From positions 1 to 31,961 of IMG/VR virus record IMGVR_UViG_3300037991_000533: 31,961 nt of DNA; one strand, written 5' to 3'. Position 1 is the first letter of the stretch, and the number at the start of each line of letters is the position of its first letter. Below, one piece after another: positions 23,133 to 28,697 of the stretch. A program made the translations under genes and the position numbers. The notes beneath the pieces were generated by a model. The model was not told the origin of the DNA, made no database searches, and saw only the letters and a list, made by a program, of their open reading frames with translations. This DNA comes from a virus (lineage: Duplodnaviria > Caudoviricetes).

Positions 23133-23341
23133 TGTGGTGGACAAAACTTAAAAAAAAATTTTCAGATGCAGATAATATTATTGACTTTAGTGTTGATGTA
23201 CTTATCATTATATTTGACGTAATGACTACACCATTACTAATACCTATACGAATAGGTAGATATTATATTAAAGGTTTTTTTAAATCAATGTGTAAGAGAT
23301 TTCTAAAGAAAACTTATCATAGGTTGTATGATAAAGAATGA
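23129..23341 (+). CDS. Small hypothetical membrane-associated protein
   Basis: 70 aa with hydrophobic core and basic tail; ATGA overlaps on both sides. Confidence 0.55.
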   Translation: MMWWTKLKKKFSDADNIIDFSVDVLIIIFDVMTTPLLIPIRIGRYYIKGFFKSMCKRFLKKTYHRLYDKE

Positions 23342-23661
23342 CGTTAGTAAACTTAACAGATAAAGCAAAAGAACATCTAAAAAATCTTGCTAAAGACCAC
23401 GACAAAAAATATGTTCGTTTAGAAGTTAAAGGTGGTGGATGTGCAGGTTTTAGATATGACTGGTCATTTGATAACTACATACAAGATAGTGATGACTTTA
23501 TAGAGTTTGAAGGTTTTACTTTATTAATTGATAAATCAAGTTTACTTTATTTAATGGGAATGACTATTGAATATAAGAAAGAAATATTTGGTAGCTTCTT
23601 AGAACTAAAGAATCCTAATGCAACAAGTAGTTGTGGTTGTGGAGAAAGTTTTGGAGTATGA
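23338..23661 (+). CDS. iscA: A-type Fe-S cluster carrier (IscA/SufA/HesB family)
   Basis: LTDKA, VKGGGCAGFRY and NPNATSSCGCGESF with all three Cys; subfamily (IscA vs SufA/ErpA) not resolvable by eye. Confidence 0.93.
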   Translation: MTLVNLTDKAKEHLKNLAKDHDKKYVRLEVKGGGCAGFRYDWSFDNYIQDSDDFIEFEGFTLLIDKSSLLYLMGMTIEYKKEIFGSFLELKNPNATSSCGCGESFGV

Positions 23662-24053
23662 CATATAGTAAAAAATTATTAGACCATTATGAAAACCCAA
23701 GAAATGTAGGGTCAATGGATAAAGAAAATAAAGATGTAGGTACAGGTTTAGTAGGAGCACCTGCCTGTGGTGACGTTATGAAGCTACAAATTAAAGTAGG
23801 TGATGAGGGTGTTATAGAAGATGCTAAGTTTAAAACATTTGGATGTGGTTCAGCTATTGCTTCTAGCTCGTTAATAACTGAATGGGTTAAGGGTAAGAAG
23901 ATTGATGAAGCGAATAAGATAAAGAACACAGAGATAGCTAATCATTTAGCTTTACCTCCAGTAAAGATTCATTGTTCTGTGTTAGCAGAAGATGCAATCA
24001 AAGCTGCAATATCAAATTATAAGGAAAAGAATGAGAGTAAAAACTTACTGTAG
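23658..24053 (+). CDS. iscU: Fe-S cluster scaffold protein IscU (start revised from 23631)
   Basis: YSKKLLDHYENPRNVGS, GAPACGDVM, KTFGCGSAIASSS, LPPVKIHCSVLAEDA; GGAG RBS and ATGA overlap at 23658. Confidence 0.97.
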   Translation: MTYSKKLLDHYENPRNVGSMDKENKDVGTGLVGAPACGDVMKLQIKVGDEGVIEDAKFKTFGCGSAIASSSLITEWVKGKKIDEANKIKNTEIANHLALPPVKIHCSVLAEDAIKAAISNYKEKNESKNLL

Positions 24054-24156
24054 AATAATTATATTTTTATTTATAGTGGAGATATTTATGCACATTGCTG
24101 AAATAGGCTTTGATGTAGAAGCACATTATAATTGGACAAGTATATTATATAAGTAG
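24031..24156 (+). CDS. 41-aa predicted membrane peptide (not in ORF track)
   Basis: AAGGA RBS at 24021-24025; MRVKTYCRIIIFLFIVEIFMHIAEIGFDVEAHYNWTSILYK*; fills the gap before the terminator. Confidence 0.55.
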   Translation: MRVKTYCRIIIFLFIVEIFMHIAEIGFDVEAHYNWTSILYK

Positions 24157-24175
24157 CCAACTGTGAAAATTGGAC

Positions 24176-24217
24176 AAAAAAATACCCCTAGTTATTAAGT
24201 TAGCTAGGGGTTTTTTA
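24176..24217. terminator. Bidirectional intrinsic terminator between the convergent arms
   Basis: A7-T-ACCCCTAGTTA-TTAAGT-TAGCTAGGGGT-T-run: GC-rich stem with an A-tract before and a T-tract after. Confidence 0.9.
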
Positions 24218-24218
24218 T

Positions 24219-24434
24219 TTACTTATCAGATTTATTTTCAATAGTAAGTGTAGACATTTCATCTTTCACTTCTTTTATTTCATTTTCATAATGCTCTTTT
24301 TGTTCTTCAAGATAATCTAATCTAGCTTGTAACTTTTTTTGTTGAGCTTCTTGATACATCTTTTCAGATACGACCATTACTTTTGGTCTCATTAAATCAA
24401 AATGATTATAGAACATGTTGTCCAATAACATCAT
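24219..24434 (-). CDS. Small coiled-coil hypothetical protein
   Basis: 71 aa, AAGGAG RBS; aromatic N-terminus LLDNMFYNHFD, RPKVMVVSE, then charged coiled coil. Confidence 0.7.
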   Translation of the reverse strand: MMLLDNMFYNHFDLMRPKVMVVSEKMYQEAQQKKLQARLDYLEEQKEHYENEIKEVKDEMSTLTIENKSDK

Positions 24435-24454
24435 AGTATTTCTCCTTTTAGTTT

Positions 24455-24529
24455 ATTATCCCTTAATAGGCAATAATGTTTTTATTAACTAGGTTTAAGC
24501 CATACCTTTTAAAGCATATGGCTTATACC
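24455..24529 (-). promoter_or_regulatory. Tandem hairpins with matching UG/G internal loops (candidate cis-regulatory RNA)
   Basis: UAAGCCAUA-UG-CUU-UAA-AAG-G-UAUGGCUUA and AUUAU-UG-CCU-AUUA-AGG-G-AUAAU on the - strand transcript. Confidence 0.55.
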
Positions 24530-24544
24530 AAAAAAATAATGCTA

Positions 24545-24625
24545 TTACTTTTCAGCACAAGCATATGAATTAATTTCTAAACCTACAGAAATTTCTGTTG
24601 CAACAGGTTTTGTCCATTGTTTCAT
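24545..24625 (-). CDS. pqqA: PQQ precursor peptide PqqA (not in ORF track)
   Basis: MKQWTKPVATEISVGLEINSYACAEK*; W-x-x-P leader and G-x-E-x-x-x-Y core; AAGGAG RBS; tandem TAA TAG stops. Confidence 0.88.
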   Translation of the reverse strand: MKQWTKPVATEISVGLEINSYACAEK

Positions 24626-24626
24626 A

Positions 24627-24998
24627 TTATTTCTCCTTCCATGTTTTAATTCCTTTCTCAGCACCTCTACTTATGATATAGCCACCAATACCAATCTGTA
24701 ATAAATCAAACAGTTTCATAATAACTGCATCTGATAAATTCTCAGGATGTATTCCAAACCAATACATAAATAAAAGTAACAAGAAAGATACCATAGTCAA
24801 TGGTCTCCAATTACGTTGTAACCAACCTTCACCTTTAGCTTCAGCAACCACTACAGATGCAGCAGCTTTTTCTATGTCTGCTGAGTGCGTAACTAGTGCT
24901 TTGTTTAATTCTGATTGAGCCTTTGCTTGAGCAGCTTTATCAGGAATTATTCTATCAATTACTTTACCTAATATAGGTGCAATCATTGGTAATAACAT
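24627..24998 (-). CDS. Holin, GTA 3-TM family
   Basis: IDRIIPD, AEAKGEGWLQRNWRP, IGIGGYIISRGAEK family motifs. Confidence 0.85.
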   Translation of the reverse strand: MLLPMIAPILGKVIDRIIPDKAAQAKAQSELNKALVTHSADIEKAAASVVVAEAKGEGWLQRNWRPLTMVSFLLLLFMYWFGIHPENLSDAVIMKLFDLLQIGIGGYIISRGAEKGIKTWKEK

Positions 24999-25049: not shown

Positions 25050-25614
25050 GAGTTAATTTATTATTTTTGTTCATCTTACATTTACCTTCAAGGCAAATTA
25101 AGTCATTGTTTTCATTAGTTTTTTGATAATACTTATGAAGAGGACTAGTGTAAAAGTAAAATGAACCCTCCTGCATAGGTATATAATATTTTTTAGTGCC
25201 AGGTCTATTGTAATAAAACAAAGCTGAACTTGAGTTACCTATATGTATTGGTAACACAAAGTAACAATCAGCTTTATGATTTAAATTACAATACGTACCA
25301 TCTTCCTGAATTATTTCAAATGCAGGAGATGAGTATGTGTCTTCAAATGTTAAATCTTCTACATACATATTGTTTAACATTTGTTTTACTTTAAATAATA
25401 ATGAAGGAAACTTTTCAAAGATAATTGGATTGTAAGTTAAACACTTATCTTTGTAAGTATCTTCAGTATCTGTGTTTTCTTTTCCTGAACCTAATGAAAA
25501 TCTATCATAATATTTTGACCAAGAATCTTTTAAATCCATTACTGATTTATAGATTGCCTGACAATCTCTATCTTCTATAAAATTTTTAATCGTTATTGAA
25601 GAGAGTATTTTCAT
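25039..25614 (-). CDS. Degenerate 2OG-Fe(II) oxygenase-like (DSBH) protein (start revised from 25725)
   Basis: IKNFI..DC start, FSLG, P.F.II, GSFYFY...LH and ICLEGK pattern; no canonical H-x-D; ATG 25614 gives only a short overlap. Confidence 0.45.
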   Translation of the reverse strand: MKILSSITIKNFIEDRDCQAIYKSVMDLKDSWSKYYDRFSLGSGKENTDTEDTYKDKCLTYNPIIFEKFPSLLFKVKQMLNNMYVEDLTFEDTYSSPAFEIIQEDGTYCNLNHKADCYFVLPIHIGNSSSALFYYNRPGTKKYYIPMQEGSFYFYTSPLHKYYQKTNENNDLICLEGKCKMNKNNKLTLFF

Positions 25615-27862
25615 ACTTAGGATGTTCCTTTCTTCCACCTGTCTTCCATAACTCAGAAACAAGAGTACCTTCTCCATATAGTTCCATATGCATATCAACA
25701 TCTTGTCTTTGAAATAATTTTTCACAATCTTGTGCCATAGCTAGTAACTCGCCTGTAGTCCAGAACTTCTTATTATTTGTAGTAACGTGTAAGTATTTAC
25801 CTTTACCTGTTGTACTATCAACTGCATCTTTATCTTTAGGTTCATCCATTGAACAATCAAAACCATATAGTTTAAAGTTTCTAAATCCTAATGTATGCCC
25901 AACACTAATGGCTCTCATTGCTGCACAAGTACCACCAGTTAGTAGAACTGTATCATCAGGTATACCTAATTCTTTTGGTATAGTAACTTTATTATCTGTG
26001 TTCTTCTCAACAATAGCATCTGAGTATGCATTCCAACCCACTATCTTTGCATTCTTATCTTTTAAGAAATCTACAACTGAAGTATCAGTCATAGATGATA
26101 CAAAAAATATAGTTTCTTTAGGTATCTCTTTAAATAATTCTTTACGAACAATACCATGTGTACTTGTACCTTCAATAGGTCTAGGGTCAAGTATGTTACA
26201 TGCCCAAGGAACTATACCTTCTTTTAAAAGCATAGGTAGTGAATGTTTAACACACATAATTTTATTTTGTGTTGACTTGAGATAGTCTTTATACTTTAAA
26301 AATGAAGGACCACCTGATACTATGTTAAGTATCTCTCCATGTGGTCTAGCTTTAGTTAACCATTTATTAATTGACTGTACATTATTCTTAATATTATTTC
26401 TAATATAATCAGTAGGCATACAGTCTTTTGGTTTAACAATTATTGGAACGTGATTGAAACTTTCAGGGAGTTTATCAAGATTAGATTTATGAAGAACAAC
26501 AGCAAGATGAGTAATACCACCACCTGCCACTGGGTCATTAGATGGAAGAACTTTTTTGCGTAGCTTTTTACTAAGGGCATCAAATACTTTATTTGTTCCT
26601 TTATGTTCATCAACTACTTCCTTTCCTTTTTCATCTTTAGTAAAGTAATCATCAAATACAACAGCAGGTATATCCTTTGTCATATTATAATCATGCTGAA
26701 CAGTTTCAAAACTATGACCACCATCTAAATATGCAATGTCAAAATCTTTTTGCTGTGTTAGTGTTACTTTAGTATCACCCTTAACTAATTTAAATTCAAA
26801 GTTTTTGTTCATTTTTTCTTTAACAAAAGTTTTAAATTCTTTTAGTCTATTATTAACTGCTTCATAAAGATTGTGTGGTTTAGTATTCATTTCAGTTGCA
26901 TCAGTAAATTCATCTGCATCTTCAAATAAATCATAACCTTCATAGTAAACTTTGTCTACGTTGTCAAAAGCTGCCAGTGCCATTTCAATAGCACGACCAC
27001 CATTCCATGTACCTGTCTCCAGTATTCTTGAAAACTTGTAATGTCTGATGACATCTGCCAATTGTTTGTACCTCTTTGGACCAACGACATCAGGTGTGGT
27101 CTTATCAGATAACAAGTCCTTCCTATTACCCTTGAAGTGTTCAAAGTAATTTGCCAAAGGAGAATTATTAAACGCATCTAAACCTCTCACGTCTGGTGTT
27201 AAACTATGTTTCTTTAAACCATGTGCACCATAGATATTAAATAATCTTTCAAAGATAAATCCATCATGCCATTCTCTATATGAAAGAACTTCATGACTAT
27301 TATAAAGACCTCTCATATCCCCTAGTAAATCAAGGGGTGGGACAGTATTAAGATTAAAAGCCATGAAAGATGTTTCACTATAGTCCACATCCTTCCTACC
27401 TAAGTGGACGAGTTCAGAACCTAGGGGAATGATTCCAAACAAGTCTTGTTTATTAACAGGCTTTTTAAGGATAATGTCAGCATCTAACCATACTACCCAC
27501 CCAGCTTGTACACTCTTTTCTACCAACTTGAAGGAGAAGTCAGTCAGAGCATACACTTTGTGACACCATTTAATGGCATCTAATCTCCAGTTATAAGGCA
27601 TCTTACCACCTTCAGTACCATCATGAAGTTTCATTTCTTCACGATAGGTAATCATTTCGTCTACCTTATTAAGATTTTTAAATGTTATTTTATTTGATTT
27701 AGGAAACTCTTTTATCTGTTCATCAGTAAAGTCATGATAGTAAGCAGTTAAATGTAAATCATCAGCCATAAACTTTACAACTGAGTCAATCATTTTCTTT
27801 GCATAAGTTTCCCATCCCTTTGGACTAAAGGAAGTTACGATATTTATTGTGTCTTTATTCAT
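25586..27862 (-). CDS. Three-domain fusion: GT-A glycosyltransferase + class I SAM methyltransferase + DUF115/Maf-like domain
   Basis: IVTSF, KVYA, WLDAD, SETSF, EWHD, HFKG (GT-A); ILETGTWNG, YLDGGHSFETVQHDY, FDDY (Methyltransf_24-like); IVSGGPS, DPR, GG.C, GFRNFKLYGFDCS (DUF115-like). Confidence 0.8.
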   Translation of the reverse strand: MNKDTINIVTSFSPKGWETYAKKMIDSVVKFMADDLHLTAYYHDFTDEQIKEFPKSNKITFKNLNKVDEMITYREEMKLHDGTEGGKMPYNWRLDAIKWCHKVYALTDFSFKLVEKSVQAGWVVWLDADIILKKPVNKQDLFGIIPLGSELVHLGRKDVDYSETSFMAFNLNTVPPLDLLGDMRGLYNSHEVLSYREWHDGFIFERLFNIYGAHGLKKHSLTPDVRGLDAFNNSPLANYFEHFKGNRKDLLSDKTTPDVVGPKRYKQLADVIRHYKFSRILETGTWNGGRAIEMALAAFDNVDKVYYEGYDLFEDADEFTDATEMNTKPHNLYEAVNNRLKEFKTFVKEKMNKNFEFKLVKGDTKVTLTQQKDFDIAYLDGGHSFETVQHDYNMTKDIPAVVFDDYFTKDEKGKEVVDEHKGTNKVFDALSKKLRKKVLPSNDPVAGGGITHLAVVLHKSNLDKLPESFNHVPIIVKPKDCMPTDYIRNNIKNNVQSINKWLTKARPHGEILNIVSGGPSFLKYKDYLKSTQNKIMCVKHSLPMLLKEGIVPWACNILDPRPIEGTSTHGIVRKELFKEIPKETIFFVSSMTDTSVVDFLKDKNAKIVGWNAYSDAIVEKNTDNKVTIPKELGIPDDTVLLTGGTCAAMRAISVGHTLGFRNFKLYGFDCSMDEPKDKDAVDSTTGKGKYLHVTTNNKKFWTTGELLAMAQDCEKLFQRQDVDMHMELYGEGTLVSELWKTGGRKEHPKYENTLFNND

Positions 27863-27863
27863 A

Positions 27864-28697
27864 TTAATATGTTACCATCTTTGTAGGTCTTGTTTCATTT
27901 ATAGTATTTCTATATAAAAGCTTTTCATCTTCCCAGTCTTGAGCAAATTGCATAGTTGCAAACTTACCACCAAACCAAGGACCACCAAGAGAAAAATGTA
28001 TAGCATTAGGACTTTCTTTTAATTGTGAAACACCAGGAATATGATTCCAACTAGCAGGTATCTCTCCTATCTGGTCATCACTTGTCCATTTAAATTGATG
28101 TAGGTCTAAACCTTTCATAGTATTTACATCATCACTTGTTAAATTTTTTACATCTTTATGTTTCATATTAAATAACATTAGAGAAGACCAAAGTTTCTTA
28201 TCATATCCAAGTTGCTTTTGATTATCCATCTTAGTATCTTCAGTAGGTTGCCAGTCAAACTTAACACATGCAACAGCTTTATCAGCATAGTTCTCTTCTA
28301 CAAACTTAAATAGTTTGTCTATATCTTTAAGAAATAAAAAATCACAATCACAAAACATAACCCAATTTTTCATCTTATTTATTTTAGCTAAGTGAGGACA
28401 TAGAAATCTAGTATGACTAAACTCTGTTGAAAAAGGTTTGTCATCTAGCACATCATATTTTTGTCCTTCATTATCTTCTCTCCACTCTCTAGTAAAATGA
28501 CCACTACTTCTTAAATGAGAAACATTTAAATCAATGATTGTTAAGGGTCTTGAGCTATGTCTAGCTAATGAATTTTCACATACTCTGTAAGCTATATCTT
28601 CACGAGAATCATAACCTATAAAAACAAAGTTAGTTTGTTCTTTAGGTAAAGGATGAATTATTTCTTCCTTATGTGTTGTTCTTGCATTTATAAACAT
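27864..28697 (-). CDS. GT-A glycosyltransferase (GT8-like)
   Basis: FIGYDSRE, STEFSHTRFL, FCDCDFL (DxD), KKLWSSLMLFN, LHQFKW, WNH, IHFSLGGPWF. Confidence 0.88.
   Translation of the reverse strand: MFINARTTHKEEIIHPLPKEQTNFVFIGYDSREDIAYRVCENSLARHSSRPLTIIDLNVSHLRSSGHFTREWREDNEGQKYDVLDDKPFSTEFSHTRFLCPHLAKINKMKNWVMFCDCDFLFLKDIDKLFKFVEENYADKAVACVKFDWQPTEDTKMDNQKQLGYDKKLWSSLMLFNMKHKDVKNLTSDDVNTMKGLDLHQFKWTSDDQIGEIPASWNHIPGVSQLKESPNAIHFSLGGPWFGGKFATMQFAQDWEDEKLLYRNTINETRPTKMVTY

Follow-up and report, generated by a model that had tools for sequence, protein, structure and literature searches.

Whether a phage can carry a genuine gene for PqqA, the precursor peptide of PQQ, and what use such a gene would be to it, is the question raised by a short open reading frame in a marine virus. 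In the PQQ pathway PqqD binds PqqA, PqqE cross-links a Glu and a Tyr of the peptide, and PqqB and PqqC then process it to PQQ; the reference for this established pathway is said to be Barr et al. 2016. The stretch of DNA that was analysed, here called the window, is 31,961 nucleotides long and equals a whole linear IMG/VR virus record (IMGVR_UViG_3300037991_000533; 33% GC, 55% complete according to CheckV).

A phage-encoded PqqA peptide

The reading frame lies on the minus strand and runs from 24625 to 24545 (81 bp, 26 codons), with the ATG at 24625-24623, a TAA at 24547-24545 and a second stop (TAG, 24544-24542) directly behind it. A Shine-Dalgarno sequence, AAGGAG (24638-24633, minus strand), is present 7 nt ahead of the ATG within the final codons of the holin gene, and the holin stop is separated from the pqqA ATG by a single base. 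An earlier note on this DNA had described the 26-codon frame, the ribosome-binding site, the 1-nt spacing and the two stops, all of which the sequence bears out; its coordinates (24545-24625) are also correct, and the strand, which it left unstated, is the minus strand. A plus-strand reading of these positions was ruled out (stops and no open reading frame), and a GTG start yielding 39 residues was dropped, as it overlaps the holin gene and is unsupported by the relatives, which conserve the ATG and the Shine-Dalgarno sequence. The exact peptide is already a gene call on 53 JGI/IMG contigs, with none of five cluster members named, and PHROGs holds no family for it.

The peptide scored 32.8 bits against TIGR02107 (cut-off 20, E 4.5e-8) and 28.6 bits against PF08042 (cut-off 21.1). 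It has the E-x-x-x-Y core, the W-x-x-P leader (W4 and P7) and a length within the 22–30 residues of the family; the residues expected to form PQQ are E17 (24577-24575) and Y21 (24565-24563). A loose PqqA motif matched once in the window and in none of 200 mononucleotide shuffles. No solved structure of the peptide was found. The identification as PqqA, for which the earlier note had proposed a comparison with PqqA models, is thus supported by scores above both cut-offs: the frame is a genuine phage pqqA, a member of the PqqA family, and of the alphaproteobacterial (TMED127) type.

A Shine-Dalgarno-like word precedes all 117 scorable viral pqqA copies of the TMED127 type (by a lax pattern for which no background rate was computed), and AAAGAA stands in place of AAGGAG in a relative that is devoid of pqqA (L344, n = 1). 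Judged from the 1-nt spacing, holin and pqqA are likely co-transcribed, and translation of pqqA may be coupled to that of the holin. In two RNA libraries, each from a different study, contigs of related strains (∼94% alike) run across holin and pqqA (X12, 24308-24887; X6, 24154-24701), which reports presence only, since strand, level and transcription are not readable from contigs; four of 24 listed runs were examined, and in the other two the contigs only adjoin pqqA. A promoter scan of the window stayed at chance level (12 vs 10.9).

Genomic context of pqqA

The plus strand of the window carries virion genes up to a pair formed by an iscA-like gene and iscU (23338-24053; TIGR00049 and TIGR01999, both over cut-off). 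On the minus strand are genes for endonuclease I, a B12-dependent ribonucleotide reductase, glycosyl- and methyltransferases, the holin, pqqA and a 71-residue open reading frame. This is the setting of a viral AMG: a virus record with virion genes on one side and holin, reductase and endonuclease I on the other. The holin-family gene directly upstream of pqqA (24627-24998, minus strand) encodes 123 residues with three transmembrane segments and matched PF11351 (GTA_holin_3TM) at 39.9 bits (cut-off 24.8) and phrog_3427 (holin). Cultured phages are at best distant relatives: the reductase shares 62% identity with its counterpart in Puniceispirillum phage HMO-2011, and a virion protein 33–37% with those of DSL-LC04, HTVC027P/023P and CRP-901/902; from these relatives, the phage would be podovirus-like. 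No tRNA or tmRNA was found in the window. A 758-residue multi-domain protein (25586-28697, minus strand; methyltransferase PF13578 and MptE-like PF01973) adjoins a GT8-like glycosyltransferase gene, is conserved in all 24 close relatives defined below, and possibly serves surface or DNA modification.

A search with the holin gene yielded 53 loci, 24 of which, at an identity of at least 86%, are referred to as close relatives. pqqA is intact and in the same place in 22 of these; one copy is cut by a contig end and one site is empty. pqqA was absent from the 29 more distant holin loci, several of which are cut short. In the empty site (L344:5001-5450, record G449, 98% complete) the holin gene runs directly into the terminator, lacking both pqqA and the 71-residue frame and keeping iscA-iscU, and pqqA was found nowhere else in that record. 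On the evidence of this one clean empty site, pqqA is an accessory, dispensable gene in these phages.

The segment beyond pqqA is variable as well. A stem-loop is predicted just 3' of the gene (24492-24529, minus strand), as part of an optional segment that also carries the 71-residue frame (24219-24434, minus strand; present in 15 of the 24 close relatives); it is absent in L340 and L342, where pqqA meets the terminator directly. The 113-nt spacer folds with a z of −1.83, seven of 200 shuffles being equally good, and ten sequences gave no two-sided covariation for the hairpin. This predicted element possibly stabilises the mRNA. A structured RNA family was rejected, as the hairpin lacks two-sided covariation and the window has no Rfam match. 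The 71-residue frame gave no family over cut-off, and the Atlas returned viral look-alikes only, with scores under 0.9; an origin as a host gene was rejected, the frame being absent from five TMED127 genomes save for one coiled-coil piece (E 0.02). An intrinsic terminator flanked by a T-run on either side (24184-24211; terminator scan, fold z −2.69) is predicted to end holin-pqqA from one direction and iscA-iscU from the other, and it is this element that sits straight after the holin gene in L344.

The iscA-iscU pair, found in 14 of the 24 close relatives including L344, is an independent accessory unit, which comes and goes separately from pqqA. A general viral link of pqqA with iscU, through supply of Fe-S to PqqE, was rejected, as pqqA was present in none of the best 80 of 594 viral iscU loci (median 9.9 kb). 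Conversely, iscU was seen in six of 118 viral pqqA loci, 38 of which are shorter than 630 bp. In L004, L044, L083, L091, L094 and L109 pqqA and iscU are immediate neighbours, and in L004 iscA flanks pqqA on the other side; L004 and L044 group with T4-like phages, so that a window-like pqqA-iscU layout occurs in an unrelated phage group.

The remainder of the PQQ pathway was searched for with TMED127 sequences as queries. PqqB, C, D, E and XoxF gave no tblastn match in the window or in the 118 viral loci (the 38 short ones included), and TIGR02109 found nothing in the window, in line with the earlier statement that it holds no pqqBCDE. Because the record is linear and only 55% complete, the stand-alone nature of pqqA rests on the relatives: PqqD, PqqE and PQQ alcohol dehydrogenase are absent from 20 whole records, 19 of them pqqA carriers, of which six are at least 90% complete.

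The predicted host

Cellular pqqA was sampled as 121 loci from 13 of the 64 parts of a genome collection. The closest cellular peptides were from low-GC marine genomes; AG-404-M02, AG-915-O07, AG-337-E20, AG-896-A16, SAT166, TMED13 and MED657 belong to the order TMED127 (Table S1/S3, PMC12542740). There were two exceptions: L168, a low-GC contig of 2.5 kb that was binned, possibly wrongly, with a gammaproteobacterium, and L141 (NZMJ01000006.1), a contig from a MAG that bears the title Maricaulis. The latter is a phage of the broad group of the window (portal, GroES, holin-like gene and pqqA) and likely a contamination of the bin. The C-terminal signature EIN[S/C]YACAEK-stop was present in four of 401 alphaproteobacterial genomes, all of TMED127 (the order of G004) and one of them the seed genome.

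The IscU protein of the phage points the same way. It is up to 91% identical to sequences within TMED127 (G309), and three of its top four matches in a sample of 301 genomes of the class are from this order, the fourth (G294, 87% identical) lying outside it. Two unpublished genomes (G045, G245) entered the signature and IscU tallies as negatives only. In an IscU tree the phage row falls among 22 TMED127 rows (support 93/86, unstarred, with an unconverged bootstrap), and three other viral IscU rows fall outside this clade. DNA matches between the phage and TMED127 genomes were confined to iscU, pqqA and a weak piece of iscA. A phage virion gene was found in none of 42 TMED127 genomes, which are incomplete, so that its absence does not exclude the host, and neither a prophage nor an infected-cell contig was found. 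The literature searched (few subscription papers, with some supplementary AMG tables outside it) gave no link between TMED127 and phages. Overall, peptide, signature and IscU indicate that the host is very probably a member of TMED127/Methylaequorales, uncultured methylotrophs of the ocean.

The earlier note had asked whether the host carries pqqBCDE, and in TMED127 these genes are present: one pqqA leads a pqqA-B-C-D-E operon that adjoins a gene for a PQQ dehydrogenase; other copies are orphans. The pqqA pattern was detected in 39 of the 42 genomes, with two to five copies in 29; pqqE exceeded its cut-off exactly once in 28. The layout of many pqqA genes and single enzymes is also known from Methylophilaceae, with 3–12 pqqA copies (PMC4109929), and from Hyphomicrobium (accessible text of PMC9851590). 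Two TMED127 loci may be recorded here: L147:345-491 has two pqqA genes in head-to-tail order, on opposite strands and some 150 bp from each other, and in L158:622-2977 an orphan pqqA is next to a gene for a ZnuD-like TonB receptor. TMED127 are lanthanide-dependent methanol oxidisers; according to the text available for PMC12542740 they are likely obligate methylotrophs, xoxF5 makes up 16–57% of their transcripts, and a PQQ glucose dehydrogenase is transcribed as well.

A probable role as extra substrate for host PQQ synthesis

With a probability of roughly two in three, in our estimate, phage pqqA serves as an extra substrate for the PQQ pathway of TMED127, keeping lanthanide-dependent methanol oxidation running during infection. 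The phage peptide would be made behind the holin, bound by host PqqD, cross-linked between Glu17 and Tyr21 by host PqqE and processed by PqqB and PqqC, and the product would add to the periplasmic PQQ available to XoxF. PqqA would be consumed once per cofactor, with the enzymes turning over. Diffusion drains free PQQ (PMC12124388), so that a steady supply would make sense; as it leaks from the periplasm, a gene of 81 bp may be the cheapest source when host expression falls. The suggestion in the earlier note that the phage supplies the consumable substrate is strengthened by the HMM scores, by the purifying selection described below and by a predicted host with pqqB-E. What counts against a need is that as many as five pqqA copies are already present in the host and that one 98%-complete relative does without the gene. 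It is also not obvious why more PQQ, a recycled cofactor, should be needed within one lytic cycle, and in Methylovorus PQQ rose to only a limited extent when pqqABCDE was overexpressed (accessible text of PMC9851590).

Conservation and selection

Twelve distinct alleles from 23 genes were compared, with the reservation that the pairs are not independent and that L325 and the window possibly come from one population. Codons 11–26 showed a pN of 0 against a pS of 0.19, and codons 2–10 a pN of 0.245 and a pS of 0.183 (pN/pS 1.3), W4 and P7 being excepted from the variation; W4, P7, E17 and Y21 are invariant in all 12 alleles. The E-x-x-x-Y core is kept in 118 of 118 viral copies, with both the E and the Y codons varying synonymously, and these copies had been collected by a pattern on the leader and middle of the peptide that made no use of E and Y. 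The last 16 residues equal the commonest TMED127 host alleles, and the leader in the window is identical to host alleles at 18–20 of 23 positions. Viral copies favour ATT and TAT; those of the host favour ATC (30/31) and TAC (27/31). Phage pqqA is thus under purifying selection, which answers the call in the earlier note for a check of conservation and selection.

These data bear on the notion that pqqA is a passenger, a host gene caught at an accessory hot spot, frequently re-captured and of little benefit. The variable zone with its optional neighbours, the relative without pqqA and the many host copies ready for donation would fit such a history. It is already largely refuted, however, by the absence of amino-acid change in codons 11–26, by the viral codon preference, which implies that the gene has spent some time in phages with its core unlost, by the Shine-Dalgarno-like word ahead of every scorable copy, and by the presence of pqqA at different sites in several unrelated phage groups; we regard it as improbable.

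The same alignment speaks to a second proposal, raised in the earlier note, that the peptide is a decoy or competitor which binds PqqD or PqqE to block PQQ synthesis or drain SAM. Altered binding is conceivable, given the free variation of residues 2–10 and the differences from the host in the leader, but a peptide acting as a dead substrate would be expected to lose E or Y, and neither is lost in any of the 118 copies. The host-like last 16 residues argue against it as well, and stopping the energy supply of an obligate methylotroph would presumably hurt a lytic phage. A decoy is accordingly disfavoured, and we give it slightly less weight even than a passenger.

Distribution among viruses

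By extrapolation from partial scans, an estimated 550 or so IMG/VR stretches hold the alphaproteobacterial-type core, and about 180, podovirus-like and T4-like, the narrower C-terminal signature, the counts being of stretches and not of species. Eighty flanked loci together with the window and L141 fell into five gene-sharing groups (43, 13, 12, 6 and 3 members) and five singletons. One group is T4-like (gp33 and gp59 as neighbours) and includes copies with the signature of the window. The neighbours of pqqA are replication genes (gp33, gp59, exonuclease) in T4-like carriers, and portal or terminase genes in other podovirus-like groups. As the insertion site differs between groups, the layouts suggest several separate captures of pqqA by phages.

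PQQ is an antioxidant and binds lanthanides. The phage peptide might be converted to PQQ with the benefit lying elsewhere: in these two properties, in the host glucose dehydrogenase of which PQQ is the cofactor, or in a public good set free when the cell lyses. Of 118 TMED127-type viral loci, 77 have pqqA behind a holin or holin-like gene (only weakly holin-like in 36 of the 77), which could mean late expression; the host transcribes the glucose dehydrogenase, and PQQ, once secreted, becomes a common good (PMC12124388). The association with a holin is lineage-specific, however, pqqA being placed among replication, portal or terminase genes elsewhere, and XoxF dominates host transcription, so that such a benefit is judged unlikely, if less so than a passenger or a decoy.

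The spread over unrelated groups also weighs against superinfection exclusion, in which the extra PQQ would occupy a PQQ importer serving as phage receptor. PQQ does block an E. coli phage that has PqqU as receptor (PMC12124388), and each of five TMED127 genomes inspected has 2–4 TonB-dependent receptors. However, three receptor types of TMED127 compared with solved structures were ZnuD-like, FecA-like and without match, none of them being a PqqU (a fourth type, L728, was outside the search), and one shared receptor is unlikely across unrelated phages. We consider this reading very improbable.

Several further features of viral pqqA loci were observed. A protein of 107 residues with a hydrophobic N-terminus (cluster c16; L003:9705-10025) is encoded behind pqqA in 39 of the 118 TMED127-type loci and has no Pfam or PHROG family. 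In L002:8654-9715, and also in L024, L062, L075 and L078, a protein of 354 residues of the fatty-acid-desaturase family (PF00487), which we take to be AlkB-like, is encoded just upstream of pqqA; these phages are large (those that were checked are 14–19% complete at 45–60 kb by CheckV). Viral pqqA also comes in a second type, with Cys-Tyr-Ala-Cys-Ala-Glu-Ile/Leu as its end (L133, L136, L160, L200, L215 and many viral loci), which matches another low-GC marine alphaproteobacterial group, not TMED127, with pqqE (five of five). In L088 a viral PqqA-like frame has a long Asp/Ser-rich repeat tail that replaces the usual stop.

Relation to known systems

The novelty implied by the earlier note does not hold. 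The Lake Baikal phage VP_266 carries pqqA, which in the accessible text of Coutinho et al. (2020, PMC7678222) was already interpreted as a PQQ boost for methanol oxidation, and viral pqqA, pqqD and pqqE are listed for reservoir sediments, with pqqA as auxiliary gene, in the available part of a 2026 article (PMC13188868). The gene kind and its interpretation are thus published; what is new is the host assignment and the breadth. The window phage resembles VP_266 in carrying a pqqA that is read as an auxiliary gene for the PQQ of a methylotrophic host. VP_266, as described in that text, is a T4-like freshwater phage with a predicted Methylophilaceae host and also carries methanol dehydrogenase, whereas the window phage is marine and, judged by its relatives, podovirus-like, has an alphaproteobacterial-type peptide and TMED127 as predicted host, and 19 carrier records lack a dehydrogenase. 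The 2026 article, in the part at hand, frames viral pqqA in terms of phosphate solubilisation in freshwater sediment and holds no analysis of the peptide. Viral pqqA is not described in the accessible portions of PMC11118758, PMC12801897, PMC9004378 and PMC13558084; the main text of PMC12542740 contains neither 'pqqA' nor 'phage', and the available text of PMC11996626 none of 'phage', 'viral' and 'pqqA'.

Phage pqqA belongs to the same family as cellular PqqA and shares the stand-alone layout of the orphan copies of TMED127 and Methylophilaceae in particular, but differs in its position directly behind a holin gene and in its phage-like codon usage. The cultured OM43 phages Melnitz-1 (MZ577095) and Venkman (MT375522), the hosts of which are known, also contain a stand-alone pqqA that is unannotated (L714:1498-1566 and L715:1198-1266; PF08042, 37.2 and 43.3 bits). 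These peptides are of the Methylophilaceae type and about 55% identical to that of the window; in Melnitz-1 a hypothetical CDS is annotated over pqqA on the opposite strand.

Implications

There is an annotation gap for pqqA, which has no PHROG family and is unannotated in the two cultured OM43 phage records; these phages offer a ready system for studying its function. More tentatively, and at somewhat less than even odds, pqqA may play the part among phages of open-ocean methylotrophs that psbA plays among cyanophages: TMED127 phages of both the podovirus-like and the T4-like kind would have captured host pqqA separately, since PQQ supply would limit lanthanide-dependent methanol oxidation in infected cells, and the C-terminal signature would act as a host barcode that ties the ∼180 IMG/VR stretches to the most active methanol oxidisers of the ocean. 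If the host assignment is right, a gene of 81 bp would be an inexpensive way to mark the hosts of many uncultured marine phages and would point to viral control over the turnover of methanol and lanthanides.
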